Of a stretch of DNA of 64,000 bases, positions 6,550-56,158 are shown in pieces. Positions within the stretch are counted from its first letter, which is position 1. Each line of letters starts with the position of its first letter. The notes beneath the pieces were generated by a model, which saw only the letters and a list, made by a program, of their open reading frames with translations, did not search any database and had not been told where the DNA came from. Origin of the DNA: Stegostoma tigrinum (lineage: Eukaryota); assembly GCF_030684315.1 (NCBI RefSeq), contig NC_081378.1, positions 24,290,571 through 24,354,570 of the forward strand, given 5' to 3'. Made by a program: the position numbers and the translations under genes.

Positions 6550-6746
6550 AGAGAATAACACAGTGTAGAGCTGGAGGAACACACAGCAGGCCAGGCAGCA
6601 TCAGAGGAGCAGGAAAGCTGACGTTTCAGGTCGGGACCCTTCTTCACAACTTTCTGAAGAAGGGTCCCGGCCCAAAAACATCAGTTTTCCTGCTCCTCTA
6701 ATGCTACCTGGCCTGTGTTCCTCCAGCTCCACACTGTGTTTTCTCT
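6550..6746. mobile_element. Short fold-back Penelope-derived element with two degenerate hammerhead cores
   Basis: Two inverted arms centred near 6650; gtgaagaagggtcccgacctgaaacgtc on minus and ctgaagaagggtcccggcccaaaaacatc on plus. Confidence 0.8.
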
Positions 6747-7707
6747 AATCACACATCTATGGTTGTGATAGGAGTGTATCATATGATTCCAGTTCCCAGG
6801 AATAAAATCCCAGTCTGCCATTGTTCAACCATATCAGTCCTCATTGGCCCTCTTTTATGGACCATCACAGGCTATAACCCTAATGAAGCCTGCTGCCATT
6901 CAGCAATATATTCAGCTGAGATGTATGCCACAATCATTACAATTAAGAGGCAGCACAATGTTTTCCTGCATCACCTTGAACAGATTCATCCATTGTGATT
7001 GAGAGGCTGTCAAACTTTAGTCCCTTATGTTTCAATTTGCAAAGAACAAAGAGCCACTTTTCCAATTAAAAATTACAGCTTGCTTTGATTTACTGCTTAA
7101 ATAGTTCAATATGTAATTCCAGTCTCTAGTGATTTCCTAACAGTAGTGGTCATCTTTCAAACTGACTACATTCTTGTTCACCTACGGTCATGGCCACATG
7201 TTGGAAAAAGACATCTGACACACAGACTCACCCTGCAATGTATGAAATTCCTAATTACTTAGCATTGCAAACCCATCAAGTCTATGCATAATTTTATTTT
7301 CTTTTATCCAAACGCAGCCAAGAACTATAGGGAGAATGGTTTCCTTTAATTTTCATCCTGGCTGAGATGGAACCCACTTTAAATGGTTTCTTTTCCTTGA
7401 ATACATGGCTTCTCAATTTTATGACATCTATGATAAATGTTTAAAAACAGGTATTAAGACTGAACTCATTGGAACAATGTGCCCTGATTATATCTTAGAT
7501 TATTCAGCATATGGAAGACTTGTACTCGTGCAACAGCTATACCCCATGCCAAACTGATCTAGGACATCAATACAAATATTATGTGGCAGTGTGGAAAACT
7601 TCCCCAGGTATGTCGTCCTCACAAAAAACAAAACAAATCCAATCTGACCAATAACTCCCACATCACTCAATTCTCAGCAAAAAATAAAATAAATTGTTGA
7701 CAGTGCT

Positions 7708-7920
7708 TTGAGATAGCACGAACTGCAGATGCTGGAGAATCTGAGATAACAAGGTGTAGAGCTGGATGAACACAGCAGGCCAAGCAGAAGAGGAGCAGGA
7801 AGGCTGTCGTTTCGGGCAGAGATCTGAAGAAGGGTCTAGGCCCAAAACATCAGTCTTCCTGCTCCTCTGATGCTGCTTGGCCTGCTGTGTTCATCCAGCT
7901 CTACACCTTGTTATCTATTA
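7708..7920. mobile_element. Short fold-back Penelope-derived element with TSD
   Basis: Inverted arms; TGACAGTGCT duplicated at 7698-7707 and 7921-7930; plus-strand core ctgaagaagggtctaggcccaaaacatc (GAAA mutated). Confidence 0.8.
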
Positions 7921-7984
7921 TGACAGTGCTATGACATGGGTTGCAGCAGGATTCACCTCCTGACTCTACAGTTTTAGTCTAAAC

Positions 7985-8116
7985 AAAAACTAAGAGAACT
8001 GCAGATGCTGTAAATCAGGAACGAAAACAAAATTGCTAGAAATGCTCAGCAGGTCTGGTAACATCTGTGAAGGAGAAAACAGTTAACATTTCGGGTCTGG
8101 TGACCCTTCCTCAGAT
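7985..8116 (-). mobile_element. Family-2 Penelope-derived terminal fragment with hammerhead core
   Basis: Minus 8114-8085 reads CTGAGGAAGGGTCACCAGACCCGAAATGTT; the arm matches 55465-55775. Confidence 0.7.
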
Positions 8117-16572: not shown

Positions 16573-19364
16573 CTGAATAGGATAAAAGACAAAACCAGAA
16601 ATCATGCATTCATCAATGAACAAAATCTTCAAAAAGTATAATATTTCTATACAAGGTAGCAAATTGGAATTTATTCTAAACAACCTTGAACCCAACCCAA
16701 TCAGGTTTCCTACAGATTTATTGTTTTAATCCTGACAACCTTAAGGTTTGTCAATGTGGGGAAAAAAAGGAATTGAACATAATCTGAAAATAACCTGCTG
16801 GAGCTACTGTCACAATATAAAATGTCTAATGTCTTCCCAGTACGGCAATACATTGGTTGAACTTTCTGGTCTGTACTCCTGGCATTATTTTGCTTTGTTG
16901 TTGTTGATAGTTCAGTCTGAAAAGATGAGAGGATTTTAAAAAGATTTTAATTCAAAGAGAAAATGATTGAACAGGGAAATTAAGTGACAGGAAGAGAATT
17001 ATGTACCTATTTTCGTACATGAACCATTAGAAGCCTGTGAACACGAGACCCAGCATTGACATGAAGGGCTAAATGGCCTTCTTTATTTTAAGTTTCCACA
17101 TTCCCTACAGTGTTAAATTCAGTAAGATCTGATCAGTTAGTGGAATTTACAAGCGACTAGAAGTGCAAGGTGTGGCATTGCATTAAAACATCTGAAAAAA
17201 ACTAAGTATGCCAAGATTCTGCTGAGGGACTACTGGGCTAATGTGAAAAAAAAATAGATTTCATATATAGTTAGCACATAACTTGGCAGTTTCTTTCTAA
17301 ATATCACTAGGGAGAAGAAAACATACAAGAGATGAAAAGAGTTGTAAGAGACAGAATAAAGCTCAATGGGTCAGAACAAGTTAATAATTTTCTGGGAAGA
17401 GAAACAGTAACAAAAATAATATTTGAATTAATATTATGTATGAGAACAAGAGTAAGGCAAACTTTGAAGACATGATAAATCAATCAACCTCAGTACAGTG
17501 GTTAGTAGCTAAGTCTACAAACAGTGGAAAATATGTAAAGAAGCATGGTATGATTTAGAAACAGAACATTTCCTTAAAAGGATAGGCTCCAATGAGTTGT
17601 TATAACACAAATGGTCAACAAGTCTGGCCAGGGACAGGTTCTAGCTTAGGCAAACAGAAGGATAAGTGGAAATACAACTATGAGCTATATAAAGCCACAA
17701 AAGTATACAAAAAGGAAAAACCATTATCACAAAAATTAAACCAAAAATATTTAAAAGATATCAAAGCTAACAGCAAATTTAATAAGTGCATTAAGCAAGT
17801 GTGGTGTTAGGGAATACATAGCTACCTAAAAAGGTAGGTGTAGACAGAACAATAACAGGCAAGTTTTTTGAAGGAGTATTTTGCATTATTTTCAAAGTTA
17901 AAAAGGACTCATTACACAAGAGTCAAAAATAAGCTGAGGAAGGGATGTTGGTGAATTTAACACAGGAAAAAAAGACGGTATTGAAGAAAATAACGTGAGT
18001 TATGATAGAAACTACAGTGTTGAATAAAGAATTTTCCAAAATGTATCTAGATTCAATTATTAGACCTTTGGTTTAAAGCATACCACTCCATTATATGAAA
18101 TAGAAAGGAGATCGCATCAAGGTAATTGTGACCCAGTAATCATGAGGAAGTTATTGAAATTAGTGAAAGAATGAAAAGTGCATGAAGATCATTTTTGTTA
18201 AGGAAGACCACACCAACTAATCTGTATGAAATATTTTAAAGCAGTCATGAACATGATTGATAAAGACTACCTATGTATGCTATCAATACTGACCTGAGCA
18301 CTGCCAAATAGGAAGACATAGGACTGAAACTTTCGATCTTGCATGCTTCAGAACAAATGCAAAAATGCATAATTTCAGACAAACCATCACAACTATTTAT
18401 ATTACACGAGAAAAGGAGGTCGCTGTTTTAGGTATTTCCAAGGATCAAACAACCATGAACTACAGGTCCTCCTAGCTTCCAGGTAATTCAAAAAGTGCAA
18501 AACTCGCAACATATTCTGTTAGTTGGTACAGAATGCAATCCTGCAAATGATTCATCGATAGCTTCTACTATTTAAAAAAGCTCACTACAGGATCAACTGA
18601 TTATCTTAAATTGGTTGTTAAGAAGCTATTAGCACACTTAGGGTTGTTCAAGAAGTGCTATCCAAACAGAGAAGCACTTGTTTTGCAAGCATGAACTCTG
18701 CCTATTATAAATCAAAGGAACATGTGCAAGACTCAATCAGCCAATCACTGGGATTTATGGCCTGCTTGCTTGGCATCATGCCAGCACTGAAATTGATACA
18801 TGATGTTGCTCAATTCTGTAGTACATAGAACATCTTTTTGGACTGATTGCAACATCCTGTTAATGGAAACTTTCACTTCTATAGCAAATGCAAAGCAGCT
18901 GAGTGAAACAGCTTGCTTAGCCCGTTGTTCATATTTTTTGAGATACTTTACATTTCCCAGGCAATCTGAAGTAAACCAGACACTCATCAGGTAGGAAAAT
19001 GGGGATCCACAGTTCATTTGCAAGTTTTGACATAACACAACAACGAATCATCTGATCAAGATAGCCAATGTCCCAACATACTACCTCTGCTGTGCTCTAT
19101 TTCTACATCAAGCTTGCAAGATGAGCAAGGGCCTATTTAGAAGATAACTGATAAGGCCAATCTTATTACAATAAGTTATATGCAGTGCAACATGTATATT
19201 GACCAGTGAAGCTAGGCTTGTAATAAACAGTAATGAAGAACCAACTAGCAGGTTTCTCAATTATCATGTCAAAACAAAAGTAGAGCATCAGACTATCTGC
19301 TCCTCAGTAGGACGACAAGGTTAATTCTATTATAACAAGATTACACAAGCAGCTTAAACTATAA

Positions 19365-19570
19365 AAGCAAAATACTTTGGATGCTGGAAATCTGAAATAA
19401 AAAGCAAGCAGCAGAGTGACAGCATAATGGAAAGAGAAACAGAGTTAATGTTTCAAGTTCAAAATGAAGTTCTGACAAGGTATCATAGTGAATTTGAAAT
19501 GTCAACTGTTTCTCTTCCCACAGCTGCTGCCTGGCCTGCCGAATGTTTCCAACAATCTATTTTTATTTCA
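19365..19570. mobile_element. Old degenerate fold-back Penelope-derived element
   Basis: gatgctggaaatctgaaataaaa...gagttaatgtttc and ...aatgtcaactgtttctct...gctgctgcctggcctg...ttttatttca form imperfect inverted arms related to family 2. Confidence 0.55.
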
Positions 19571-21236
19571 ATTAGAATATTGGATGTAACCAAATATAAT
19601 GAGATAAGAGGTGTAGGAAGTATCATCATATAAAACTTTTAAAAATTCCAATGAGGTTTGTGGAAAGAAAAATATATAACTGCACCACCAAGAGTATACA
19701 TTCAGTCAAACATTATTTTTCTCATTAACAATTAGCTAATCAATCTTCACGGTCTTTGTGTCAACTGTCAGCAACACAATTGAGAGCTGTATGTGTGAGC
19801 TTTATTAGTATAATAGAAGTGATATTTTTAAAAATATATACAAAGGAAAAATTGTGGCAGAGAGTTACTAAAGTTTTGTTTCATTGACTTTCAGTTTCTA
19901 TTTTCATTATTACATTGAAAAATTATATAGACATTTGATGCATAATCCAGACAATTACATTAAAAACCTGTTTTGTGAAATCAAACAGATGGTTGTAACA
20001 TTCTTAGGACAGAATAGATCATTTATGTTTCATTGAATCAGTATCACTTGTAGTCGATTAGGTTACCCTGCCTTTTTATTAGAATAATAGACTTGGAGGT
20101 AATTTAAAAAATCCTGTTTATTTGAAAGTATACTGACTCTTAGAAAATTTTCTGTGGCAAACAAAACAAACTAGAAACAAAATATCCACAATTGGCAAGG
20201 CTTAATTTCTAAAACTATTTTATCTAAGATCAACATCAGATGTATTTACAGGATGGCCGTTGGTATTGAACATTTATTTTAAATGGCAGTAAAGTCCTGA
20301 ACAAAAATTTTCATGGCTCAGGATCCCTTTCCTGGGACCGAGTTTGAAACCTCAACCTAAACCAGCTTCTGATCTTACTAATTAGAAAAAAATTTCATTC
20401 GCAGTTAGAACACATTGGAGTGAAGGAACACGGATTCACAAAAAAGGATCAAACTATCAAATCACTCAGACTCACCATATTAATCTACAAACTGAGTACA
20501 TTTAAAAGTTACACTAATAAATAGCATAGTTTCACTCCTGTGCCCCATAATAGGGAATGGGATCCTGCTGAGAGACACTGGCCTTCCTTTGGTTTATTTA
20601 TGTAATAGTAAAAGACAGATCTCAGAAGAATAAAATGGAGGACATGAGAATCCTTTCGATGATTCCACTACAGCCAAGGAACACATTATATATTTTGTCC
20701 TTCCAAACATTAACTATGGAAGATTACGGAGTAACATTTGTGGCTAATGAGGATGGTTCCTGAGTAAATTCACTAAAAGAGTAAAAACACCATTCAATTT
20801 TTCTTACTATGCTTTGGTGACAACACATTAAGCAACTCTACCGACAACACTGTTTAACAATAAATGCAACCGGAACAATGACACCTGAATAATTACTGAT
20901 ACAGTGAAAAATATTAAAAATGTAAATTCTTGCATAAGATTAAAAATTCCACCTCCCATTAGCAATCTTAAAGTGACACTTATGCTCAGGAAGCACATGG
21001 CCCAAAGTGTTTTCCCTCCCATCTAATCCAGACAGTTGGAGAACTAGCAAGAGGTTGGAAACACCAGCAGCGAAAGTACTGTGATTTGCAACTGAAACAA
21101 AATACAAAAAGCATGATTTTTGCTCCCCTAGGTACTTCATGCTTTAAATCACAAGCTTGTTGGAAACATTCTACAGAAGTCCAAACAATCCTTGCTCAGA
21201 ATAATCAAATTCAAACTGTATATCTGTTGTTATTTG

Positions 21237-21418
21237 AGATAATGGGCACTGCAGATGCTGGAGAATCCAAGATCACAAAGTGTGAAGCTGGATGAACACA
21301 GCAGGCCAAGCAGCATCTCAGGAGCACAAAAGCTGACATTTTGGGCCTAGACCCTTCATCAGAGAAACCAGAGATGCTGCCTGGCCTGCTGTGTTCATCC
21401 AGCTTCACACTTTTTTTA
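21237..21418. mobile_element. Short fold-back Penelope-derived element, 12-bp TSD
   Basis: TGTTGTTATTTG at 21225-21236 and 21419-21430; minus core ctgatgaagggtctaggcccaaaatgtc (CpG-decayed). Confidence 0.85.
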
Positions 21419-25823: not shown

Positions 25824-26767
25824 AACAAAGTGTGGAGGTGGATGAACACAGCAGATCAAGCAGCATCTTAGGAGCACAAAAGCTGATGTTTCGGGCCTAG
25901 ACCCTTCATCTGAAAAGGGGGATGGGGAAGAGGATTCTGAAATAAATAGGGAGAGAGGGGGTGGTGGACCAAAAATAGATAGAGAAGATAGGTGAAGAGG
26001 TAGGGAGGGGATAGGTCAGTCCAGGGAGGACGGATGGATAGGTCAAGGGGCAGGGATGAGCTTAGTAGGTAGGAAATGGAGATGTGGCTTGAGGTGGGAG
26101 GAGGGGATAGGTGAGAGGAAGAACAGGTTAGGGAGGCAGGGACGTTTTGGGATGCAGTGGGGGGAGGGGAGATTTTGAAGCTTGTGAAATTCACATTGAT
26201 ACCACTGAGCCGCAGGGTTCCCAAGCGGAGTATGAGTTGCTCTTCCTGCAACCTTCGGGTGGCATCATTATGACACTGCAGGAAACCCAGGATGGACATG
26301 TCATCTAAGGAATGGGAGGGAGAGTTGAAATGGTTCACGAGTGCGAGGTGCAGTTGTTTATCAAGAACTGAGCGTAGGTGTTCCGTAAAGCGGTCCCCAA
26401 ACCTCCGCTTGGTTTCCCCAATGTAGAGGAAGCCATGCCGGGTACGGCGGATGCAGTATACCACATTGGCAGATGTGCAGGTGAACATCTGCTTGATGTG
26501 GAAAGTCATCTTGGGACCTGGGATGGGGTTGAGGGAGGTGGTGTGGGGGAAAGTGTAGCACTTCCTGCGGTTGCAGGGAAAAGTGCCGGGTGTGGTGGGA
26601 TTGGAGGGGAGTGTGGAGCAGACAAGGGAGTCCCGGAGAGAGTGGTCTCTCTGGAAGGCAGAGAAGGGTGGAGATGGGAAAATGTCGGTGGTGGGGTCAG
26701 ATTGTAGATGGCGGAAGTGTCAGAAGATGATGCGTTGTATCTGGAGGTTGGTAGGGTAGTACGTGAG
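25824..26767 (-). mobile_element. 5'-truncated Penelope-like retroelement (GIY-YIG endonuclease + terminal repeat)
   Basis: ORF 25868-26509 FTCTSANVVYCI...FLYIGETKRRFGDRFTEH...HFN...LGTL..SGIN is a PLE GIY-YIG domain; flanked by gagaccacagtgat (25810-25823) and gagactgcagtgat (26768-26781). Confidence 0.9.
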
Positions 26768-34600: not shown

Positions 34601-36470
34601 CTGCAAACAGAAATATGAAGTTTAAAAATGAATTTTAAAAAAGAAAAATCAGTCAAGAGACAACATAAAATCATCTGCTTACATATCTTAAAATACACAG
34701 TACATTTGCAATTATATTCCCATTGCTTTAAAAATGCATTGTATGTAAAATGGGAATGTTTAGTTGAACAAGCTTCTCTATAGTACTAATAGAACAAAAA
34801 ACCTCATCTGGGCCCAGAAGAGCTTAGGGTGAATTGGAATGAGGAAAGATGATAATTTGGAAGAAGATTTACAACTTCCCTGTCATCAACTTTATCAACC
34901 TCTTACCATTAAAAGGGGATATATAGTTCAGAGAACTGTGGATGGATTAGTGATTTGAAAATGGTTGTTTTATACATAAAGATTGAGACTGTATTCATTA
35001 CAGTTTAGAAGAAAGCAAGGTTTGTCTTATTGAAATAAGATTCTGAGGGGACTTCTCAGAGGTGCAGGGAAGAGGTTTCCTTTCAGGGAATCTGTCTAGA
35101 ACTGGGGACAATTTCAAAAGGAGGGGCCTCTCAAGACGAATGAGAAGGAATTTCTTCTCTTGATGGGTCATAAGTCTTTGTAATTGTCTTCCACAGGGAG
35201 CAGGGGAGGCAGGCTCATTGAATATATTCAAATCCAAGTTAGATAACTCTTTGATGCATCAAAAAAATTTACAGATTATGGGAACAGATAGGAAATTGGG
35301 GTTAACACCATAAATTGGTCATAAGCCATAAATGGTGTTGTAGGGTCAAAGGGACCAAGTGGTTTACTCCTACTCATAATTTATGGCCTTACAACATTAA
35401 ACTATTTTCATATGAGAGATAATTTTGCCTAAGTATACCTTGAAGGACGTAGTAAGTCAATCAAAACTCTAATTCCACAGACAAATTAAAAGTTGCATAA
35501 CAACTACTTTTTACCTATCCTTACAAGCCACCCATATAAACTATCTTATTTCACACAAACTTCTAAGGACATAAATAAACACACACAAAAACAACAAACA
35601 AAAATTGACAAAAGACTTTTTCCTCCTCCTCATAGATGCAACTGCTGTGTCATCTGGGTCTTGTCACAGACAGCTGTGGGGCAGAGTTCTTGTGAATATT
35701 TAAGGCTAAGATAGATTCTTGATCAAAAAAAAAAAAAAAAAAAAAAATCGGGGAATCAAGGGTTATGGGGAAAGAGCAGGAAAGCGGACGTGAGGAATAC
35801 TGGATCTGCTATAAATATATTGAAAGACGGATCATGTTTGATGGGCCAAACAGCCTGCTCCTGTTCCTATTTCGTAACGATCTAAGCCTGATCACATGCT
35901 CAAAACTAACTCCAGCAGCTCAAGCACATAAACCTCCCCCCCACCCCCAAAAAATGCTGAAACTCTGAAGCAAAACAGTCAGTAAAGTGATTCTCATAAA
36001 TGAGTCTAATGCTAAAGCATTCGTCCCCTGCTGAACTAAGCGTGTGTATGTTGCATGCACTCTACATAAAACAGCAGTAAGTATTTAATTAACTTGGGAT
36101 CCCCTTAGAATGGGTACTGACAGTGCAACATGTAGATAATTTCCCATTATTTCCATGGCCTTTTTATATTGGTTCCAAAATATCCATGGTAACTTCCAAA
36201 AGCCACTAAAAACGACGACAGGTACACCACTGTTTTAAACACATGGAAACAATTAGCAGATTTACAGAAGCAGCAAAGGAAACATGCCCGGATCCAAATT
36301 GTTTTTATGCTCCGGGCATCACGATCTCTTTTGGATCTCAAACTACTAGGGTTTCGCTGAAAAGACTGGCACCCTTCAAAACAAAAACGGGGATAACACG
36401 ATGTGAGATAATAAAATGTGAGGCTGGATGAACACAGCAGGCCCAGCAGCATCTCAGGAGCACAAAAGCT

Positions 36471-36498
36471 GACGTTTCGGGCCTAGACCCTTCATCAG
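36471..36498 (-). ncRNA. Minimal type I hammerhead ribozyme core
   Basis: CUGAUGA-A-GGGU-CUAG-GCCC-GAAA-CGUC; catalytic core nucleotides intact, but stem I is only about 2 bp locally. Confidence 0.7.
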
Positions 36499-37508
36499 AG
36501 AGGGGGATGGGGTGAGGGTTCTGGAATAAATAGGGAGAGATGGGGAGGCAGACCGAAGATGGAGAGGAAACAAGATAGGTGGAGAGGAGAGTATAGGTGG
36601 GGAGGTAAGGAGGGGATAGTCAGTCCAGGGAAGACGGACAGGTCAAGGAGGTGGGATGAGGTTAGTAGGTAGGAAATGGAGGTGCGGCTTGGGGTGGGAG
36701 GAAGGGATGGGTGAGAGGAAGAACAGGTTAGGGAGGCAGAGACAGGCTGGGCTGGTTTTGGGATGCACTGGGTGGAGGGGAAGAGCTGGGCTGGTTGTGT
36801 GGTGCAGTGGGGGGAGGAGACGAACTGGGCTGGTTTTGGGATGCGGTGGGGGAAAGGGGAGATTTTGAAGCTGGTGAAGTCCACATTGATGCCATTGGGC
36901 TGCAGGGTTCCCAAGCGGAATATGAGTTGCTGTTCCTGCAACCTTTGGGTGGCATCATTGTGGCACTGCAGGAGGCCCATGATGTACGTCATCTAAAGAA
37001 TGGGAGGGGGAGTGGAAATGGTTTGCGACTGGGAGGTGCAGTTGCTTATTGCGAACCATTGCTTATTGCAGGAACAGCAACTCATATTCTGCTTGGGAAC
37101 CCTGCAGCCCAATGGCATCAATGTGGACTTCACCAGCTTCAAAATCTCCGCTTCCCCCGCTGCATCCCAAAACCAGCCCAGTTCGTCCCCTCCCCCCACT
37201 GCACCACATAACCAGCCCAGCTTTTCCCCTCCACCCACTGCATCCCAAAACCAGTCCAACCTGTCTCTGCCTCCCTAACCTGTTCTTCCTCTCACCCATC
37301 CCTTCCTCCCACCCCAAGCTGCACCTCCATCTCCTCCCTACTAACCTCATCCCACCTCCTTGACCTGTCCGTCTTCCCTGGACTGACCTATCCCCTCCCT
37401 ACCTCCCCACTTATACTCTCCTCTCCACCTATCTTCTTTTCTCTCCATCTTCGGTCCGCCTCCCCCTCTCTCCCTATTTATTCCAGAACCCTCACCCCAT
37501 CCCCCTCT

Positions 37509-37536
37509 CTGATGAAGGGTCTAGGCCCGAAACGTC
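37509..37536 (+). ncRNA. Minimal type I hammerhead ribozyme core
   Basis: ctgatgaagggtctaggcccgaaacgtc, identical to the 36471-36498 core. Confidence 0.7.
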
Positions 37537-37649
37537 AGCTTTTGTGCTCCTGAGATGCTGCTGGGCCTGCTGTGTTCATCCAGCCTCACATTTTATTATC
37601 TTGGATTCTCCAGCATCTGCAGTTCCCATTATCACTAACACGATGTGAG

Positions 37650-37828
37650 GCTGGATGAACACAGCAGGCCAAGCAGCATCAGGGGAGCAGGAAAGCTTGA
37701 CGTTTCGGGTCGGGACCCTTCTTCTTTCAAGCTTTCCAGCTCCTTTGATGCTGCTTGGCCTGCTGTGTTCATCCAGCCTCACAGCGTGTTATTTCAGATT
37801 CTCCAGCATCGGCAGTTCCTACTACCTC
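37650..37828. mobile_element. Older fold-back Penelope-derived element (host of the 36408-37635 insertion)
   Basis: Inverted arms; its left end lies at 36393-36407; own degenerate TSD caaaacaaaaacgggg (36377-36392) / caaaacgaaaacaggg (37829-37844). Confidence 0.8.
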
Positions 37829-37868
37829 CAAAACGAAAACAGGGTTCAGTTTCACAAAATGCACTTAC

Positions 37869-38268
37869 CAAACTTTACCGGAGTGACCAAATCGATGCGA
37901 GTATCGCCGCTGATTTTTTCAGAAGTCACCACCATCTGTTTCAGAGCCTTGTCGTACTTCACCAGAACATCGTCCATATTCTCCCCTTGGTTTGGGGAAA
38001 TGAGTTCGACGAAAGCGCGGTCAGCCGACGGGTAGCCGTGCGGGTCCAGCGGCTTCACCGACACATCGCAGGGCAGGCGCACCTTTAAAGAGCCGAAAGG
38101 ATCTACCAGCAGAGTCCAGCGTTTCAAGGCGCTACCCTTGTGCCGGGAGTCCAGGCAGCGGGTGCCCGACACCGACCTCCAAGGCCGCAGACGGGCAAAA
38201 GACGGGCCGCATTCCCTCGGCAAAAGCGCTGACCAGCCTCGGCGGAAAAACAGAGGGAAGGAAGTCAT
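37869..38268 (-). CDS. FAM185A: FAM185A coding exon 1
   Basis: MTSFPLFFRRGW...LKRWTLLVDPFGSLKVRLPCDVSVKPLDPHGYPSADRAFV...VKYD...PVKF|GTaagt vs recalled human LKEWTLQVSPFGRLRARLPCHLAVRPLDPLTYPDGDRVLV...VKYD...PLKF; CpG-rich; Arg-rich N-terminus. An in-frame upstream ATG exists at 38394. Confidence 0.9.
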
Positions 38269-38362
38269 GCCGGAGCCGAAACCAGGGACAGAATACCGGA
38301 TCCTCCACGGCTCAGGAGAAAACCACAACGCCAACTTTCTGTTGTTATGGGTAGAGGAGAAA

Positions 38363-38434
38363 GTGCTGTCGGGAGTTGAAGTCCGCGCACGCATCTTTAA
38401 CCGGACGATTGCGAACTACAATTCCCACAATGCA
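38363..38434. promoter_or_regulatory. Pair of ZNF143/THAP11 (SBS, ACTACA..TCCCA) motifs in the FAM185A CpG-rich promoter
   Basis: AACTACAATTCCCACAATGCA at 38414-38434 (+) and the variant GGACTTCAACTCCCGACAGCAC at 38384-38363 (-). Confidence 0.75.
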
Positions 38435-38487
38435 GTACAAACGGTTGCAGCTGTCCAAGCATTGCAGCGAGCAACGAAGAGCAACTA

Positions 38488-39234
38488 AGATAATAAAATG
38501 TGAGGCTGGATGAACGCAGCAGGTCCAGCAGCATCTCAGGAGCACAAAAGCTGACGTTTCGGGCCTAGACCCTTCATCAGAGAGGGGGAGTGGGAGAGGG
38601 AACTGGAATAAATAGGGAGAGAGGGGGAGGCGGACTGAAGATGGAGAGAGAAGAAGATGGGTGGAGAGGAGAGTATAGGTGGGGAGGTAGGGAGGGGATT
38701 CGTCAGTCCAGGGAAGACGGACAGGTCAAGGAGGTGGGATGAGGTTAGTAGGTAGGAGATGGGGGTGCGGCTTGGGTTGGGAGGAAGAACAGGTTAGGGA
38801 GGCAGAGACGGGTTGGACTGGTTTTGGGATGCAGTGGGTGGAGGGGAAGAGCTGGGCTGATTGTGTGGTGCAGTGGGGGGAGAGGGCGAACTGGGCTGGT
38901 TTAGGGATGCGGTGGGGGAAGGGGAGATTTTGAAGCTGGTGAAGTCCACATTGATACCATTGGGCTGCAGGGTTCCCAAGCGGAATATGAGTTGCTGTTC
39001 CTGCAACCTTCGGGTGGCATCATTGTGGCACTGCAGGAGGTCCATGATGGACATGTCGTCTAAAGAATGGGAGGGGGAGTGGAAATGGTTTGCGACTGGG
39101 AGGTGCAGTTGTTTGTTGCGAACCGAGCGGAGGTGTTCTGCAAAGCGGTCCCCAAGCCTCCGCTTGGTTTCCCCAATGTAGAGGAAGCCACACCGGGTAC
39201 AGTGGATGCAGTATACCACATTGGCAGATGTGCA
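38488..39234 (-). mobile_element. 5'-truncated Penelope-like element (GIY-YIG)
   Basis: ORF 38794-39252 CTSANVVYCIHCTRCGFLYIGETKRRLGDRFAEHLRSV...HF...LGTLQPNGIN with an unbroken frame; same terminal repeat as 36408. Confidence 0.92.
38553..38580 (-). ncRNA. Minimal type I hammerhead ribozyme core
   Basis: Reverse complement reads ctgatgaagggtctaggcccgaaacgtc. Confidence 0.7.
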
Positions 39235-39898
39235 ACTGTCTGTCATGCGCACAATAAAACAAAGAACTCAGGACGCCATAGATCTGAAAGAAGAAGTCGC
39301 TGGCAAAATTCTCAAGCTGGTAGCAACCGTGTGGAGAAAGCAGAGTTAACTCTCTGGTGAACAGATGCTGTCAGACCTGCTGAATTTCGCTAACAATTTC
39401 TGTTTTTGTCGCAGGAATGCACCTGTTCAGATACGTGAATAACACGGCTCTGGAGCAGGTGGGACTTGAACCCGGATCTTCTAATTCAAAAGGAGAAGCT
39501 TTACCACTGTACCCCAATTGTTGATGTCATTCAAAGAAATTTTTACAAAATAAGCGATTTTTCGCGAAATGTCTTCTGATGTAGATCTGCCGAAGGGTTC
39601 ATGCCAAAGGCAGTCCTGCTGTTCATCCAGCTCCACACTTTGTTATCTCTAATTCCCGAAATGTCGCCTTCTCCTTTCCAAGTTATGTTGCCTAGCTTGC
39701 TGTGTTTTGACAGCCTCCTATTTGTCTACCTTGGTTCACAACTGGGTTCAGCGGATTTCTTTTGTATAACTTGAAGGACAGTTGGTGAGAGATTTAAGGC
39801 TGCACAAATATAAATAAAGGAAATGCGTTCGTAGTATCTAAGTCGTATTAACAATTAGTCTGCATTGCATGAGGGAAATGAGTTTATTGTTGGACTTT

Positions 39899-40079
39899 GA
39901 GATAGTAGGAAATGCAGATGCTGGAGAATCTGAGGTTAACAAGGCATAGAGCTGATGAACACAGCAGGTCAGCCAGCATCAGAGGAGCAGGAAGGCTGAC
40001 GTTTCGGGTTTGGACCTTTCCTGCTCCTCTGATGCTGCCTGACCTGCCGTGTTCATCCATCTCGACGCCTTGTTATCTC
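39899..40079. mobile_element. Short fold-back Penelope-derived element next to the CCDC146 promoter
   Basis: Inverted arms; ttattgttgg duplicated at ~39884 and ~40080; centre deleted, so the core is incomplete. Confidence 0.8.
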
Positions 40080-40860: not shown

Positions 40861-40902
40861 ATGGAATCAAGAGGTGAATTACCCAATGCAGATTTCTAAG
40901 CT

Positions 40903-41262
40903 CAGAAGCAGAAGTTGCAGGAAAAGCTGAGTTGGTCTGGCAGTGTCTGTTAAGAAAAATCAGTTAACTTTTGGGTCTGGTGGCCCTTCTTCAGAACAGA
41001 CCCAAAATGTTAACTCTGACTCTTAGAACATAGAACAATACAGCGCAGAACAGTCCCTTTGGCCCTTGATGTTGCGCCGACCTGTGAACTAATCTAAGCC
41101 CCTCCCACTACACTATCCCATCATCATCCATATGCTTATCCAAGGACTGTTTAAATGCCCCCTTTTACTTCATAGATGCTACCAGAACCACTGGGCTTTT
41201 CCATTAACTTCTGTGTTGTTTTTTCCTGATTTACAGCATCCACAGTTCTTTCAGTTTTTGTT
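40903..41262. mobile_element. Family-2 fold-back Penelope-derived element containing a CR1 3' end (41023-41162)
   Basis: Arms cagaagttgcaggaaaagctgag... and ...cttttccattaacttctg; the insert is nearly identical to 31080-31210. Confidence 0.75.
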
Positions 41263-41381
41263 TGCAGTGTTCTAAGCCTTGGACTTGCTGTTGTAGCCAC
41301 AGTACTAACATAGCTAGCCTAGTTCAATTTCTGGTCAATAGTGATCTCCAAGATGTTGTTTGTGGTTTTCAGTGATGCTAA

Positions 41382-41690
41382 GGGTGGCACAGTGGCTCAG
41401 CGGTTAGCACTGCAGCCTCATAGCACCAGGGACCCAGGTTCGATTCCAGCCTCGGGTGATTGTATGTGTGGAGTTTGCACATTCTCCCCATGTCTGCGTG
41501 GGTTTCCTCTGGGTGCTCCAGTTTCCTCCCACAGTCCAAAGATGTGTAGGCTAGGTGGATTGGCCATGCAAAATGGCCCGTAGTGTTCAGGGGTGTGTGG
41601 GTTATAGGGGGATGGGTCTGGGTGGGATGCTTCAAGGGGCGGTGTGAACTTGTTTGACTGAAGGGCCTGTTTCCTCACCGGAGGGAATCC
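41382..41690 (+). mobile_element. tRNA-derived V-SINE (HE1-like) inserted in an L2-like fragment (41275-42180)
   Basis: A box tggctcagcggttag, B box ggttcgattcc, V-domain tgtggagtttgcacattctcccc. Confidence 0.88.
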
Positions 41691-42414
41691 AATGCTATTA
41701 AATGTCAAGGGCGGATGGTTGAATTCTCTTACTGGAGATGTAATACTGGGCAAAAATATAACTTGCCTCTTATCAGCCCAAAACTGGATGTTGCTCAGGT
41801 TTTGCTGCTTTTGAATGTACATGGACATATTCAATAGTTGAAGAGTTGCGAATGTTGTTGAACATTATGCAATTGTCAATAAACATCTCCAGCTGAAGAT
41901 GACTGAGGCAAGAACACTACCTTAGGCAACTCCAGCAGTGATGTCATGTGGTTGAGATGGTTTGACCTCCAAGAACCACAGCTATCTTCCTTCGTGCTTG
42001 AATATGACTTCAACCAATGTAGATTCAACCCCTTAGTTCCCATTGACTCTAGTTTGCCAGGGCTTATTGATGCATAATCAGTCAAATACTGCATTGATGT
42101 TGGCAGTCTCAACTCACCTCTGGAGTTCTGTTATTTTGCCCATGTTTGGACCAAGGCTGTAACGATTCAGGAGTTGAGTCAACCATTGTTCACAGTAGGA
42201 GCTGGCAGGATTGCACAGTTTAGATCTAATCTATTGGTTGTAGGTTTACTTCGTTTTGTCTATTAAAAACAGCTTCCATGAAGTGGTCCTGTAATTATGA
42301 TTTTTAAGTGGCCTGCAAGTGAATTGAGGAGGTGTTATGATAGTCATGAAGAGTTGGGAAATGTCAGATGCCAATATCCATTGACAAGGAAGAGCATGAA
42401 TCTAGTGCTTATGG

Positions 42415-42612
42415 ATCAAAAAATGTGGAGCTGGTAAAGCACAGCAGGTTAGACAGTATCCAAGGAGCAGGAGAGTCAATGTTTCGGTTCAAAACCCTTT
42501 GTCAGGCATGAAACATTGACTCTGCTGCTCCTCAGATGCTGTCTGATCTGCTGTACTTTCCAGCTCCACGTTTATTGACTCTAGCTTCCATCATCTGTAA
42601 TCCTTGCTATAT
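42415..42612. mobile_element. Short fold-back Penelope-derived element (divergent subfamily)
   Basis: Inverted arms tgtggagctgg..aagcacagcag / ctgctgtactttccagctccac; flanks ctagtgcttatg / ctagtgcctatg. Confidence 0.7.
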
Positions 42613-44292
42613 CCTAGTGCCTATGTCCTGAGGTGTTGTTTACTGCTGAGCAACATAGAGGCTGCTAACAGCCAACTGTGAACTGAAGTCATCACGAACC
42701 CATTCCAACCAATGTCAAGGTTTTTTGATGTATAGCCTCTTGGTCACGTATGGGTAAAATAGGAAGCTGAATGTTAATGAGGCTTAAGTGGCCATTAATA
42801 AGGTGTTTAACAAGCTGCAATCCCCCTTAACTAGCCACTCGCTATCTCCTAGCAAGAAATTTGCCTCCCCAATTGTAAAAAGCATAAAAGATGCTGCGAC
42901 ATGCTCCTGATGCTGATTGCTGGATTTCTCATCTCCTTTGCAATGAATTTTTGCTATTGGCCAGACTTCTGTAACATTCTGCCCTTAATGTTTTTTTTTG
43001 TATCCATTTTACCTCACTGTTGCCAGCACAGTGATGGTTATCCTTCAATTTAATAGATGGTCGGATGCTCAGGTCTTTTCTTGTAGAACTGATTTCTTTT
43101 AAGTTTTGTGGAATGTTCTGTCTTTTCCTTTCATGAAGAAAGAGAGAAGTGAGGGAGAGAGGATGCAGTATGTTCTCACTCTCTGCTGCTCTTGGCACAT
43201 AGAGCTTTAGCTTAACCAGACTACTGGTCCCAGACAGAATTTTAAGTCAAAAACTTTTGGTGCCTCTCAACAACCACTTCTTTTCGATTTCCGAAAGAAA
43301 CATTGTATGGCACAGCTCATTGTGCAACACTTGTTTACATTGCAAAACTTTTCTGTTTTGTTTTATTAAAGTAACCCAACTTCCGTCTGAGTTTCTGGTC
43401 CAAGAAAAGGTGGCCTCTTACAACTGATCCTTGTGGCTATTAGGCCAGTGTCAGGTGCACAGGTATGGATCACTTGCACTTTCACTGGCACAATGTGAAG
43501 GAACTTTCTCTCCCATAGGGTCTGAATGTCTATGATTCTTGAGAGAGTTGTGGAGAATAGATCAGTGAAAGTATTTAATGAGGTGGTAGAGAGATTTTAG
43601 AAATATCAGGGAGTTGAGGACTATGATGAGCTGTCATGAAAGAAGAGATGTGGTCCGGGGCAGATCATCCATAACCTTGTTGAATGATGGAGCCGTCTTA
43701 AGGAGTCAAAAAGACTACTCCTACCCCATTCTCTTACAGTCTCATGTTCTTGTGGTGATATGATTATCTAATAATAAAAATCTTCAAAAACTATTTTGAT
43801 GAAAATTAGTCAATGTCACAATTTTCAATACCTAAACTGTTATTTAAATTTGAAGAACATTACACAATAATTCGCAATTTGACTTATTTGGTAAGTGTGT
43901 CAGTGACACTTTCATTACATTGCTTTATGAGTCACAATACACTGTTGTAAAAAAATTGCTGTGACTCAATGTTGTTAAATCATGGAAAATAGAGTAAAAG
44001 TACAATAAAGTTTGAAAGCTGGTCCATAGTTCCAAACTCACTGTGTAAAGTATTTATTGGATCACAAAAGGGCCAGAATGAAAAGGTCTGAAAGCTGGTG
44101 ATTCAAGCAGAGACTACCTCAAGATCTAAAACAAACCATGTTCAATTTTATTCAGTTCTGATCTGGACTTCTGTGCTTCCAGGCGTTTAGTTCTGATAAT
44201 ACTGGCCAATTATCACTCAACAAATACAATCCAATTTTGTCCTCAATACTGCCAAAACCTTCTGCTCCTTAACAAATGTAAAATCTTGGGTT

Positions 44293-44412
44293 AATAAAAT
44301 GTGAGGCTGGATGAACACAGCAGGCCCAGCAGCATCCCTGGGCCTGCTGTGTTCATCCGGCCTCACATTTTATTATCTTGGATTCTCCAGCATCTGCAGT
44401 TCCCATTATCAC
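44293..44412. mobile_element. Minimal fold-back Penelope-derived element lacking the ribozyme centre, 14-bp TSD
   Basis: TAAAATCTTGGGTT at 44279-44292 and 44413-44426; near-perfect hairpin. Confidence 0.88.
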
Positions 44413-50226: not shown

Positions 50227-51529
50227 GTAAGTTCTCGTCTATGTTTACACTATTTAATGTTTCTGTGTGGCTTTAAATATGGAGGATATTTTGCTTGAAC
50301 TTATCTTGCTCTTAAAATCTTGGGTATTACTTTGATTTTTAATAGTGTAACATAGCGGGATAGCAAATCAGCAACTTATCTCACATCACCTTGTGACTTT
50401 TACTCCTTTTGACTGTGGATAAAGATGATTCAGGAAATGGTGAATGGGAAAGAGATAACTGGAGAATAGTCGATGAAGTCAGAATGAAATTGTGGTTGAG
50501 ACAGGATGATGCAAGTGTATGAATTCTGCAGTTTCAGTTAGCTTGGCGGGAAATAACAGACAAATATTTCCAGTTCCTGGGAACTGGATCAACAAGTGAT
50601 CTTACTGGCCTTGGAAGAGAATTGGATGATGGTTAAAAATACCAAAAAAGAAAAGCAACCAACTTTCTCTACAATAAACAGTTTTAAGAACAGATGTTGC
50701 AACAGCAAGAGTTAAGTTCAAGTTACATAACTCTGCAGACTCCACCAAATAAAACCAAAAACAATTGACCAAGGGCAGTTCAATAAACCTAGTTGCTAGT
50801 TCTTCTACCATCCCAGATTTTTACCAATGCTAAAGGAAGGGAGGGAGACAATCTTGTCTTATCCTCTGCTATGGTTAGTTTATTACTCAGAGTTAATGAC
50901 ATTAGTTATAGGACCAAATGGTCCTATGTTATCTAGCGGGGTTGGGGAGGTTAGGTGGGGTTAGCAGTGAAAGGAGGAAAGGTGGAGGCACCATACCAAC
51001 TTGTTGCAGATGAGAAGAAGTTACTGGAAATTTCAATGTGACTACCTTCTTAACCTTGTCTTCTTTTGTGACTTTTCTACTTCAGTGGTCTTAATCATTG
51101 ACAAGTCATCAATTAATTTAATCCATCATCCCTACATCACCCCTTCTCAGACATCCTTTTGTTTCTAATGCATTGCACTTTAACATCATTAATTACTTTT
51201 CAGTATAAAGACTTGCATAGTTCTTTTCTACACATCATGAACCTATAAACAACAAAAAAGTTAATTTATTTTAATGTATTGGTTGAGGGAGGAATTTGGC
51301 GAGAAAACTGGACAAACCAACGGCTCTTGAATGACATATATGTAAATAGAATAGATCACACCATTATCTGCAATTGCTTGCTTTATTATAGATATGCTTG
51401 TTTTGTTTAAGAGCTGTACAGAGTTTTACAGAGCTTGTGACAGGCCTCAGTGCTTATGGTAAACATATCATATTGAGAATAGCTTAAAAGCCAAGTGCAG
51501 CTTTTTTACATATCTTTCAAAAACAGTAT

Positions 51530-51655
51530 AGAAGAAGGGTCCAGATCCGAAACATCAGCCTTCCTGCTCCTCTGATGCTGCTTGGCCTGCTGTGTTCATC
51601 CAGCTCTACACCTTGTTCTTTCAGATTCTCCAGCATCGGCAGTTCCTACTATCGC
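51530..51655 (+). mobile_element. Single-arm Penelope-derived terminal fragment
   Basis: gaagaagggtccagatccgaaacatcagccttcctgctcc...ctccagcatcggcagttcctactatc. Confidence 0.75.
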
Positions 51656-53216: not shown

Positions 53217-53917
53217 CTATGGCTTAAACGTCTTAGGCCTAATGAGCATTCTTACTGACTTAAAAGGCTGACGATAGCCATTCAGAATTTCATTTGCTGC
53301 ATTGTGCCAAGTGCCCCAATAAATACCATTTCGTATGCCTTTGTAGGGTTTTTTATAATATTTGCCATTGAGATTAGCTGACATACAAGCATCAAACCAC
53401 CAACCAGAGCCATAATATGCCCCACAGTTACCCAAAGAATAGTTATCATTATCTTTATCTTTGGTGGTGAAATATTTTTGATCATGGTTGTAATTCTTGT
53501 CATTATGCAGTGCATCACCAGCTGTGCCTGAAAACCCATTAACATTCAGGCGATAATAATGATCTTCATCTGCAACGAAGAATTGATCGTATGAGGCATA
53601 TTCTTTGATGCCGTTCCAGTCTTCTAGTTCAATTCTCAAAATCATTTCCTTGGATTCTGTCAAAAAATGTATTTTGTCATTTCCCAACCAAAATTCTGTT
53701 GAGAGATTCCCAAAACCATTTTTGTATTCAGCCCACGTGCGATTAAAATTGACACTACCATCTTTGCGAGACTGCAGTACTGTCCAACCACCATTCTCAG
53801 TTTTCATATCACAATAAACTGGAAAACTTTCATTAAAGCGTTGGGCAATTACATAGATGCCGCTTTTCTGCTGTTTGAGTCTGTAATAGCCTGAGCAATC
53901 TTCAGGAAATTTTATGG
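53217..53917 (-). CDS. FGL2: FGL2 exon 2 (fibrinogen-related domain)
   Basis: ctttcAG acceptor; FPEDCSGYY...SGIY...VYCDMKTENGGWTVLQSRKDGSVNFNRTW...EFWLGNDKIH...NCGAYYGSGWWFDACMSANLNGKYY...GIYWGTW...IRPKTFKP*. Confidence 0.95.
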
Positions 53918-54362
53918 CTGAAAGAAAGGACAGAACTAGGTCATTAACTTTATCTTTTAAATCATACCAGCTGAATTATGACCTATTTATACGTATATAT
54001 TACAATAATCTTTCACAAAATTAAATACGGCACATATAGAATGGAGAAACCTTCTATTACAAAAGTCATTCTAAACAAGTAAATACCAGGCAGAACTTTA
54101 AAAATTCTTAAATAAAATCTTAATTGATGATGATCTGTGCTTTAGCAGTGTTTCAAAATTCTACTTTCCTAACAATGAAATGATTTGGAAATTAATCAAA
54201 AATGATTACACAAAAAGGGTCAAAATGCAAATTTTTCTCAGTTCTTTACTCATAATACTATCTTATTCATCTGCACAGTAAATGCTATGTCGACAAACTA
54301 CTTCCCTATTTTTGTGGTTTTAAGAAAGCCCAGTATTCACAAAAGCATTTCGACAAACAATA

Positions 54363-54592
54363 TAATAAAATGTGAGGCTGGATGAACACAGCAGGCCAAG
54401 CAGCATCTCAGGAGCACAAAAGCTGATGTTTCGGGCCTAGACCCTTCTCCAGGGAGACCTGTCTCTCTGATGAAGGGTCTAGGCCCGAAACGTCAGCTTT
54501 TGTGCTCCTGAGATGCTGCTTGGCCTGCTGTGTTCATCCAGCCTCACATTTTATTATCTTGGAATTCTCCAGCATCTGCAGTTCCCATTATC
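54363..54592. mobile_element. Young fold-back Penelope-derived element in the FGL2 intron, 13-bp TSD
   Basis: TCGACAAACAATA at 54350-54362 and 54593-54605; near-perfect ~85-bp arms. Confidence 0.9.
54467..54494 (+). ncRNA. Minimal type I hammerhead ribozyme core
   Basis: ctgatgaagggtctaggcccgaaacgtc is intact; the opposite-arm copy reads CUGGAGA (mutated). Confidence 0.7.
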
Positions 54593-55462
54593 TCGACAAA
54601 CAATACTTGGCTACAGCGAGCGACACACAAGTTATGCACTTACATGACAGGGTAATACAAACTAATTGTGTCTGCAAACAGAGCAAAATTTGCCGACAGT
54701 TTTAAAGATAAAGATGGACTCTTCAATAAAAGTAAGATTTCCTGTATATAGGCAAAATCAATAGAAGCAACTTCTGCCATTAAATATAAACAACATGCGT
54801 TGGGTGCAATTTGGTATCTGTAGGCCTCAAGATATACTTTAATAGTAAAAGTTTCAGTTCAGAGTTAATCTAAAAAAGAGGCATTTCGTTTGTAAAGAGA
54901 GTGGATGTAGGACATGCTTTATAGTAATTTCTAGTAAGCAGACAATCTTGGCAAAATGAAGTGCTTAGGCCTTGATGATGATTTGTTTCTTTTTAAGTAT
55001 ATTTATTTACTGTATTATTTTTCCTGTTGCCTAACATGCCAATAATGCCTGGCAGTTTTGGATAGGAGGTCACAGGGCCAGGTGTAGACTGTGAATGCAA
55101 CCTCACAGTCCTCCATACTTGTCCATTTGAATCATACCCAGAGTTGAAATCAAGCCCAAAGCTCAGGTTGTCTTTTAGACTTTTCTGATAATATGGCATG
55201 CAGCATGGTAACTATCTGCAAGATCACAACATTGCAAAAGTAAGGGGCGTGAAAATTAGGATTTGGGTAAGGGTAATTATTGGGTAAGAAAATTTGTCTC
55301 AATGTTTCTCCAGAAGTCCTAATTTTAAATGATATTATTAAAAATAGATAGCTTGGTAATTTACTGTACAAAATGTTTGCATTTATGAATATTCACATTA
55401 ATTTGCTGTGATGAAAGTCACAAAAAACCCTCAGTTTGCAATGCAACTGACATTAAAATTAA

Positions 55463-55773
55463 AAACTTAAAGAACTGTGAATGCTGTAAATCGGAAACAA
55501 AAACAGAAATTGCTGGAAGAGCTCAGGAGGTCTGGCAGCATCTCTGGAGAGAAATGCTGTAAATCGGAAACAAAAACAGAAATTGCTGGAAGAGCTCAGG
55601 AGGTCTGGCAGCATCTCTGGAGAGAAATCAGAGTTAATGCTTTGGGTTGAGTGACCCTTTCCCAGAGGAAAGGTTCTGAGGAAGGGTCACCAGACCTGAA
55701 ACATTAACTCTGATTTCTCTCCAGAGATGCTGCCAGACCTCCTGAGCTCTTCCAGCAATTTCTGTTTTTGTTT
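55463..55773. mobile_element. Family-2 fold-back Penelope-derived element, 16-bp TSD, internal 73-bp tandem duplication
   Basis: CTGACATTAAAATTAA at 55447-55462 and 55774-55789; duplicated unit starting at 55481 and 55554. Confidence 0.88.
55676..55706 (+). ncRNA. Family-2 hammerhead core
   Basis: gguu-CUGAGGA-A-GGGUC-ACCA-GACCU-GAAA-CAUU-aacu; a 4-bp stem I is possible; CAUU is probably CpG-decayed from CGUU. Confidence 0.55.
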
Positions 55774-56158
55774 CTGACATTAAAATTAATCAGCTTGATG
55801 TAATTTTTAGCTGATGTGAATGCACACATTAGTGAAATATTTAATCTTGTGTCAATTTACAATTTACATATTATTGCAAAATCCAGTTGAATTGAAAATT
55901 GAAAATTTGGAAAATCAAATAATATGTATTAATATTTGACAATTTATCAGGTGACAAAGTTTCGTTCATTTTGTAGTATAGATAAGATCCATGAATCAAA
56001 GTATTGCATTGTTCAGTTTGTCCATGGAAACGTAATTCTAGAATTTCAAGTTTACATCTACTTATAATGGGGGAGAAAATTAGCATAATATTTAACACTA
56101 TGACTCCTGGTAGTATTGATAGTTTTGTATACAATATTTCATGCACAGATTAACTTAC

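Follow-up and report, generated by a model that had tools for sequence, protein, structure and literature searches.

We analyzed a 64-kb stretch of the Stegostoma tigrinum genome (referred to as the window) and found 19 insertions, E0 to E18, that consist of copies of the terminal repeat, or pseudo-long terminal repeat (pLTR), of Penelope-like elements (PLEs). They are real, abundant members of the endonuclease-containing (EN+) class of PLEs and do not form a new class. The initial annotation of the window had pointed to a high density, about one copy per 4 kb, and we counted one per 3.4 kb. Thirteen insertions are head-to-head fold-backs (12 short and 1 long), five are single arms, and one is a direct pair; the total includes three long copies at 25.8, 36.4, and 38.5 kb. 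Self-comparison and alignment located the repeat at all 14 places previously listed, mostly as two inverted copies, as had been described. Profile hidden Markov models built from the window gave 34 matches at E ≤ 1, compared with 1 in the reversed window, and added the insertions at 3.1 and 39.6 kb and the displaced remainder (41.16 kb) of the arm at 40.9 kb. Rather than belonging to one family, as first thought, the copies sort into about five lineages (A to E), and lineages B to E are represented in the window by short copies only.

Target site duplications (TSDs) of 10–16 bp flank 13 of the 19 insertions, in line with the many that had been noted. When compared with random pairs of flanks, using zones picked by eye, 12 of 17 insertions tested had a duplication at P ≤ 0.02. 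The 15-bp TSD of E12 (40.9 kb), which has two mismatches, became visible once the full extent of this insertion was recognized. At 19.4, 38.5, 39.3, 51.5, 3.1, and 39.6 kb, no TSD was better than chance.

The long copies show the organization of the parent element. In coding-strand order, they contain a linker zinc finger, a GIY-YIG endonuclease, a pyrimidine-rich untranslated region (UTR), a minimal hammerhead ribozyme motif, a further 65 nt of pLTR, and an optional tail, and the endonuclease frame ends upstream of the UTR and pLTR. The Pfam GIY-YIG model matched E9 (E = 2.6e-4, 21.7 bits) and E6 (E = 1.4e-3, 19.3 bits), both under the cutoff of 22.6; the endonuclease in these copies agrees with the earlier proposal that the terminal repeats were mobilized by a GIY-YIG element. 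The endonuclease fragment at 26168–26719 is 85% identical to a whale shark protein and 81% identical to a zebra shark protein, and alignment of the whale shark and zebra shark homologs shows a reverse transcriptase (RT), the linker zinc finger, and GIY-YIG. A CxxC motif between GIY and YIG is present in E9 and in all five aligned homologs and is decayed in E6, and two histidines are invariant. The CX2-5CxxC linker zinc finger is complete in shark protein P0001 and three distant relatives, and its last cysteine is altered in E6 and in P0002. No PLE RT is present in the window; P0001 (85% identical) aligns with RT-bearing relatives across the YIDD motif. CxxC within GIY-YIG and a CX2-5CxxC linker are marks of Neptune/Nematis-type PLEs (PMC8557442). 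Judged from these protein motifs, the source is a Neptune/Nematis-type GIY-YIG (EN+) PLE, and the insertions are almost certainly pLTR-only products of such elements of the carpet shark. A 20-nt pLTR pattern matched only two metagenome contigs with unrelated flanks in scans of sequence collections, the hammerhead core pattern had no match in viral or prokaryote contigs, and the shark RT-endonuclease protein had no relative among viral contigs.

A minimal hammerhead in the Penelope terminal repeats, as originally claimed, was recovered by a strict scan for the core, which gave seven matches, six of them inside insertions, compared with an average of 0.75 over 20 shuffles. In most short copies the core is decayed, and E14 (44.3 kb) has no hammerhead. 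Helix II is paired in 92.6% of cells and the whole structure in 88.5%, compared with 4–58% in slid registers. The core boxes, helix II, an extra base after position 9, and G10.1-C11.1 are all present, and these are the core traits of the minimal type I hammerheads of metazoan PLEs, which have a short helix I, an extra base between positions 9 and 10.1, G10.1-C11.1, and a palindromic 15.2-16.2 (PMC4209133). Rfam gave no hammerhead match in the window at E ≤ 1, all 15 of its matches being microRNA (miRNA) models below gathering scores. For lineage A, we rejected a type III layout, with the cut upstream of C3, because the nearly all-pyrimidine upstream tract cannot form helix I (assessed by eye). 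Single-arm RNA showed no excess stability relative to shuffles (z = −0.02). In a transcribed fold-back, both hammerheads would be enclosed in a duplex of ~100 bp, and the hairpins are therefore unlikely to be ribozyme substrates. A lone hammerhead-like core at 10501–10541 (minus strand) lies outside the PLE repeats, in keeping with the scan's chance rate of 0.75 per shuffle.

Positions are given below relative to the reference cleavage site, after 37536 (position 0), which places C3 at about −27. The tally of 5′ ends covers 30 arms from 17 insertions and excludes E0 and E18, which came to light afterward. Fourteen arms end at −33 to −25, five end in helix II, four within 5 nt of the cut, and three downstream. 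Upstream, no arm ends from −34 to −460, and four arms extend beyond −460. The excess at the edge has a P value of about 2e-6, which is descriptive, as the window of positions was picked after seeing the ends. E0 likewise starts at the 5′ edge of the core. This fixed end has the same offset from C3 in five lineages despite different upstream letters. The initial annotation had placed the apex at or just past the hammerhead core and suggested that ribozyme cleavage sets the truncation point. The apex is indeed nonrandom relative to the ribozyme, but it lies mostly 25–33 nt 5′ of the cleavage site. Ends within 5 nt of the cut were found in 4 of 26 short arms, compared with 4.5 expected under a uniform spread, and 19 of the 26 contain sequence 5′ of the cut. 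Since that sequence is lost in the cleaved 3′ product, ribozyme cleavage does not set the arm end.

The same end is visible in public contigs from four runs in four studies (X1, X5, X9, and X20), compared with the E7 arm (37066–37636) at 85% likeness. X1 is from the species of the window and is possibly the window's own source, and X9 is from a second shark species. Among the 24 loose-end rows listed (there are 1,572 more, and X1 was counted in part), loose 5′ contig ends pile up at 37508, one base before C3, with at least 670 in X1, 169 in X9, and 19 in X5. The flanks at this point are long, A/T-rich, and mutually unlike (median of 255 letters in X1 and X9 and 111 in X5; agreement of 0.37–0.43), and the 3′ termini give the same loose-end signature in X1 (at least 422 at 37601 and at least 937 at 37633). 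The true end is 37505–37508, lineage B having other letters just upstream. Loose ends at 37501 and 37505 in X9 and X20 represent B-type pLTRs joined to upstream UTR. The contigs that pile up at 37508 represent single-arm insertions, which indicates that the fixed end is independent of fold-back formation.

Each fold-back has its own apex. No junction-spanning string is shared by any two of the 13 fold-backs, and the apexes are distinct within lineage A (4 of 4), lineage B (4 of 4), and lineage C (3 of 3); the check for identical apex junctions across loci thus found all 13 to differ. No head-to-head joint is present on the E7 arm among the 15 of 246 contig joints listed. A fold-back master family, one reading of the mini-element class proposed in the initial annotation, is not supported in this small sample of apexes and joints (15 of 246 listed). 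The opposite-strand joints among the same 15 are on the tail side only, at 37600/37633 (52 joints) and 37601/37636 (31 joints), and together with the position of E7, they suggest insertion into the element's own pLTR end. By eye, the junctions contain microhomologies of 3–6 nt, a palindrome (E10), or short templated inserts (E5, E7, E12, E16, and E17).

The tails are asymmetric. One arm had been reported to carry, usually, an extra tail of ~35 nt, and alignment shows that 12 of the 13 fold-backs carry a full tail (about 32–35 nt) on one arm only and that none carries it on both (P = 0.002 under independent even odds). At the apex, the tail arm is shorter in seven, longer in two, and about equal in three. 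The two arms are each other's closest match in 7 of the 11 fold-backs compared (E1, E2, E4, E7, E13, E16, and E17), a comparison in which E8 and E12 were represented by one arm each. E7 is a 1.2-kb fold-back with the same tail, a 14-bp TSD, and an apex in the open reading frame (ORF), which indicates that the short elements are smaller products of one and the same process. Each insertion arose independently and is likely dead on arrival.

Table 1. Insertions and other features of the window, with arm ends given relative to the reference cleavage site
Feature	Position	Strand	Description	TSD
E0	3104..3225	+	Old single-arm pLTR, lineage C-like; starts at 5′ edge of hammerhead core; absent from the initial annotation	
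E1	6517..6748	.	Lineage B fold-back; arms reach core 5′ edge (−27, −31); left arm with tail fragments only	6504-6516 / 6749-6761
E2	7712..7916	.	Lineage B fold-back; left arm, with tail, ends about −11; right arm starts −28	7698-7711 / 7921-7934
E3	7984..8116	-	Lineage C single arm; tail and intact core; 5′ end at core edge	7969-7983 / 8117-8131
E4	19363..19570	.	Old lineage E fold-back; left arm with tail; right arm starts −30	No clear TSD
E5	21237..21418	.	Lineage A fold-back; tail arm ends −30, other starts +13	21225-21236 / 21419-21430
E6	25824..26767	-	Long 5′-truncated lineage A copy without tail; linker zinc finger region, GIY-YIG endonuclease, 3′ UTR, hammerhead, pLTR	25810-25823 / 26768-26781
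E7	36408..37635	.	1.2-kb lineage A fold-back nested in left arm of E8; apex inside endonuclease ORF (37057-37066); right arm with tail	Perfect, 14 bp
Reference hammerhead	37506..37538	+	Minimal type I; C3 at 37509; helix II 37517-37521 / 37525-37529	
~35-nt tail	37602..37635	+	Between 3′ termini 37601 and 37633	
E8	36389..37824	.	Lineage B fold-back, main part 37637-37824; left arm ends −25 and holds E7; tail arm starts −1	36373-36388 / 37825-37840
E9	38487..39231	-	Long 5′-truncated lineage A copy without tail; GIY-YIG with CxxC between GIY and YIG; intact core	
E10	39256..39409	.	Old C-like fold-back; apex is a 6-nt palindrome around the cleavage site; left tail	No clear TSD
E18	39610..39736	+	Tandem of two short pLTR pieces in direct orientation; complete core absent	
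E11	39894..40079	.	Lineage B fold-back; tail arm to about −19, other from +4	39884-39893 / 40080-40089
E12	40902..41262	.	Lineage C fold-back; left arm to −30; tail arm on the right, from −14, interrupted by a ~140-bp repeat (41022-41161), with the tail beyond it	40887-40901 / 41263-41277
E13	42414..42613	.	Lineage D fold-back; left arm to −28; tail arm from −10	42402-42413 / 42614-42625
E14	44293..44412	.	Lineage A fold-back without hammerhead (arms end +14, +25); right tail	Perfect, 14 bp
E15	51528..51655	+	Lineage B single arm with tail; starts −26	No clear TSD
E16	54363..54589	.	Young lineage A fold-back; both arms end −31; right tail; between two exons of the fibrinogen-domain gene	54347-54362 / 54590-54605
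E17	55463..55773	.	Lineage C fold-back; arms end −28, −30; left tail; ~48-bp internal duplication; same intron as E16	Perfect, 16 bp
Fibrinogen-domain gene	53217..56792	-	Two exons; C-terminal fibrinogen domain (Pfam E = 8e-80)	
LINE-type fragments	31157-32039, 47092-48909, 58966-60370		Decayed RT/endonuclease fragments of long interspersed nuclear element (LINE) type	
~300-bp element	28667-29050, 41381-41864		Repeated element	
Open frame	37852..38415	-	187 codons, between E8 and E9; no Pfam match	

The best overall explanation, and one that we consider probable, is that these are independent PLE pLTR insertions produced by dual priming and run-off. As to the mechanism, dual-strand priming followed by run-off at the transcript 5′ end and end-joining is the most likely, although we favor it somewhat less firmly. 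The GIY-YIG endonuclease would nick both target strands 10–16 nt apart, which is the length of the TSDs observed here. From each nick, cDNA synthesis would then begin at either of the two internal start sites (+65 or +97), and the tail would thus be one-sided; both termini are observed, and the use of one site per strand is our proposal. Priming on the 5′ pLTR of the transcript would allow cDNA to run off the RNA 5′ end, 1–6 nt upstream of C3, where the fixed end is observed and transcription would start, and priming on the downstream pLTR would produce long copies. The two cDNA ends would be of the same sense and not complementary, so they could not anneal and would be joined through microhomology, often with short templated inserts, to give a unique head-to-head apex. 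The junctions themselves are observed, and the joining pathway is presumed. The hammerhead would be copied uncut and would not set the end. In lineages A and B, initiator-type consensuses fit the base that precedes C3 by four positions, a hint only, as these consensuses are short.

Several of these steps have counterparts in the Poseidon-clade element PAc of Anolis carolinensis, for which both target strands are cleaved and extended in vitro and a dimer is predicted; two internal RT starts bound the tail, uncut RNA is the main template, and hammerhead mutants still insert (PMC11167929). The elements described here are alike in having two start sites that bound a tail downstream of the hammerhead (those of PAc being the equivalent of the 37601 and 37633 termini), in inserting into their own pLTR (as E7 in E8), in the nicking and extension of both strands, and in an uncut RNA template, the last two being established for PAc and proposed for the shark elements. 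They differ in clade, and the fold-back products and the fixed 5′ end are described here for the shark elements. An internal promoter or initiator-like motif has been described in PLE pLTRs (PMC2377424, PMC3846280). In its most specific form, our proposal is that shark PLE transcription starts at the 5′ edge of the hammerhead and that a dimer primes both strands at two start sites on the same RNA, yielding paired, strong-stop-like run-off cDNAs; we offer this as a tentative possibility.

Several points weigh against this explanation. A transcription start at the fixed end is an inference, and the Drosophila virilis start is not adjacent to the hammerhead but upstream of it by 46 nt plus a 75-nt intron (PMC2377424, PMC4209133). 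The in vitro system is a Poseidon-clade element and not Neptune (PMC11167929). Arm ends were assigned by hand from alignments, to within 2–3 nt, and the 9-nt window was chosen afterward; lineages B to E have no long copy in the window, and their upstream extent is bounded by the apex linker only. With contigs compared at 85% likeness, ends from lineage B are tallied at the limit of the lineage A alignment. Among the contig rows listed, X20 has no 37508 row. None of the 24 loose-end rows listed is at 37537, but with 1,572 more rows and part of X1 outside the count, the cleavage site may also have a pile. Tail arms are the shorter ones in just 7 cases versus 2 (P = 0.18), and the arms of E5, E10, E11, and E14 are not mutual best matches. 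Finally, three of seven hammerhead pairs change on both sides, which 83 of 500 shuffles also reach, so the helices show no covariation beyond that of shuffled data.

Other explanations must be weighed against dual priming and run-off. RT could drop off in the pyrimidine-rich 3′ UTR just upstream of the core, where the cDNA is G-rich, making the insertions ordinary 5′ truncations with a hot spot. This requires no promoter at the fixed point, lineage A has a long C/T tract directly upstream of C3, and 4 of 30 arms pass the fixed point and end far upstream. However, a stall should smear, and no arm ends in the 430 nt of tract and UTR between −34 and −460; an offset from C3 that stays constant across five lineages whose upstream letters differ also argues against drop-off, which we regard as unlikely. 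We consider slightly less likely still the self-priming, or snap-back, model (Arkhipova 2013), in which the second arm is formed when a single cDNA, or an antisense template, bends back on a palindrome and serves as its own template. The model was prompted by palindromes found where rotifer PLEs are joined head to head (PMC3846280), and it is consistent with the near-identical arms within one element, with the 6-nt palindrome at the E10 apex, and with the short inverted templated inserts of E16 and E17. In seven of the nine asymmetric fold-backs, however, the tail arm is shorter at the apex. The longer arm would have been made first but lacks the tail of the second arm, so simple sense-templated snap-back cannot make those seven; this argument covers the simple sense-templated cDNA version and not the antisense-template version.

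Solo pLTRs of about 95–130 nt, from hammerhead to tail, could also behave like short interspersed nuclear elements (SINEs), with an internal promoter and recopying in trans that forms a new apex each time. Unique apexes are compatible with this idea, as are the 5′ and 3′ ends that are fixed genome-wide in public contigs and the short-only representation of lineages B to E. Rotifer pLTRs alone are enough to move other DNA (PMC3846280), and tandem retrozymes derive from pLTRs (bioRxiv 10.64898/2026.07.22.740005). On the other hand, the RNA required by the anole protein extends to +172 of the ORF, ~55 nt past its starts at 111–118 (PMC11167929), and short copies would lack this RNA beyond the start sites. 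In addition, a transcribed fold-back buries the pLTR in duplex, and the B-type pLTRs joined to upstream UTR in X9 and X20 contigs indicate that long partners exist. We consider this explanation improbable, and the same holds for its boldest form, in which a solo pLTR of ~125 nt, having kept its promoter and priming site, is mobile as a SINE-like unit in its own right. Far less probable than any of these is the version in the initial annotation, whereby ribozyme cleavage fixes the RNA 5′ end or the truncation, or a fold-back master is amplified as a unit. Four arms (E8 right, both arms of E10, and E11 right) do end within 5 nt of the cleavage site, and one minor joint in X1 runs from the tail end to 37537, the base that directly follows the cut. 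These four arms, however, match the chance expectation and sit on microhomologies, the retained sequence 5′ of the cut speaks against cleavage, the lack of shared apexes speaks against a master, and anole RNA-seq contains no reads with a start or end at the cut (PMC11167929).

Copies of a fold-back family or miniature inverted-repeat transposable element (MITE) share an internal junction, symmetric termini, and TSD length. We rejected this class for the insertions, given the 13 unshared apexes, the asymmetric tail, and TSDs that range from 10 to 16 bp. An L1-type twin-priming inversion contains an inverted part from a different, upstream RNA stretch; here, both arms copy the same 3′ stretch, and this candidate was also set aside. 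The architecture has been described before in PLEs (PMC8557442, PMC3846280, PMC11167929, PMC4209133). As for the ordinary inverted truncations that the initial annotation named as an alternative, the apexes are unique but the ends are not random. An adjacent inverted 5′-truncated copy and a 30–40-bp tail at one end are standard traits (PMC8557442, PMC8969392), and rotifer PLEs have head-to-head inverted pLTRs, 8–10-bp TSDs, and solo pLTRs, for which self-priming was proposed (PMC3846280). Canonical EN+ units of Neptune and Nematis share with the shark elements the C-terminal GIY-YIG with CxxC, the linker zinc finger, the hammerhead pLTR, the head-to-head inverted 5′-truncated pLTR, the 30–40-bp one-end tail, variable TSDs, and solo pLTRs (PMC8557442, PMC3846280). 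In contrast to them, the unit here is usually two pLTRs without an ORF, and its 5′ end has a fixed position at the hammerhead's 5′ edge. The available text of PMC8969392 describes pLTRs as variably truncated tandem copies, and the pLTR lengths of published PLE families, as far as those sources present them, are given without relation to the ribozyme. Metazoan genomes each hold thousands of scattered minimal hammerhead motifs, and Schistosoma has minimal hammerhead pairs 100–700 bp apart on opposite strands (PMC4209133); sharks are not named in the available part of that source, and apex position and tail asymmetry are analyzed here. Non-LTR retrozymes, which were found in one chondrichthyan, resemble the insertions in being noncoding, pLTR-derived, and equipped with a type I hammerhead, but form direct tandem arrays with at least two hammerheads on one strand (bioRxiv 10.64898/2026.07.22.740005), whereas the insertions are head-to-head pairs or single arms. 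No same-strand tandem hammerhead array is present among the 19 insertions, and we rejected this assignment as well. The literature searched, which left most subscription papers, Dfam, and Repbase outside its scope, contained no account of shark PLE fold-backs or of a hammerhead-fixed 5′ end, with nothing relevant retrieved from PMC5753468; the two databases probably include these families.

Several further observations concern the insertions themselves. The insertion point of E7 (36394–36407 / 37636–37649) is the first RT start site in the pLTR of another copy. The start of E1 (6517–6548) consists of two short repeats of the terminal ~16 nt of the tail, with the tail middle absent, possibly through abortive starts or template jumps. 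Minor contig joints connect the tail end to 37537 and 37546 to 37507 (the fixed 5′ end), and these are possible end-to-end template jumps. In a consensus fold, the tail pairs with +15 to +23, with one compensatory case in the helix; this is a lead only, based on 12 rows, with the E14 row including its apex. Contig depth rises across the hammerhead and was not used, as depth cannot rank parts of a stretch. A-to-G changes in 37066–37636 account for 27 of 145 changes in X5 and 20 of 251 in X1 (Fisher P = 0.002); with X5 a run of unknown kind and the sequence a repeat family, this excess is only a lead for A-to-I editing.

The fibrinogen-domain gene, which we take to be similar to FGL2, holds two near-perfect PLE hairpins (E16 and E17) in its intron, and these would give double-stranded RNA (dsRNA) in its pre-mRNA. 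Elsewhere in the window, the ~140-bp repeat inside E12 recurs and resembles a LINE end, and the ~300-bp element looks to us like a shark SINE. Exo_endo_phos_2 was matched at 59678–60370 (E = 2.5e-5), and the remaining LINE-type fragments were judged by eye. The 187-codon frame is possibly a host exon.

Near-perfect hairpins of ~100 bp in host introns could yield dsRNA and could be misannotated as MITEs or miRNA precursors. For the PLEs, the fixed 5′ end and the strict one-sided tail provide a modest, testable clue to replication. The origin of the inverted repeats and tails of PLEs is named as unresolved in the field (PMC8557442). If both features hold genome-wide, they would tell dual priming apart from the self-priming model in the literature and would offer the existing in vitro system an exact test. 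If dual priming with run-off at the hammerhead edge is true, the genome would hold a very large fossil record of the reaction, enough to map the transcription start, and this record could settle how PLE inverted repeats and tails form.

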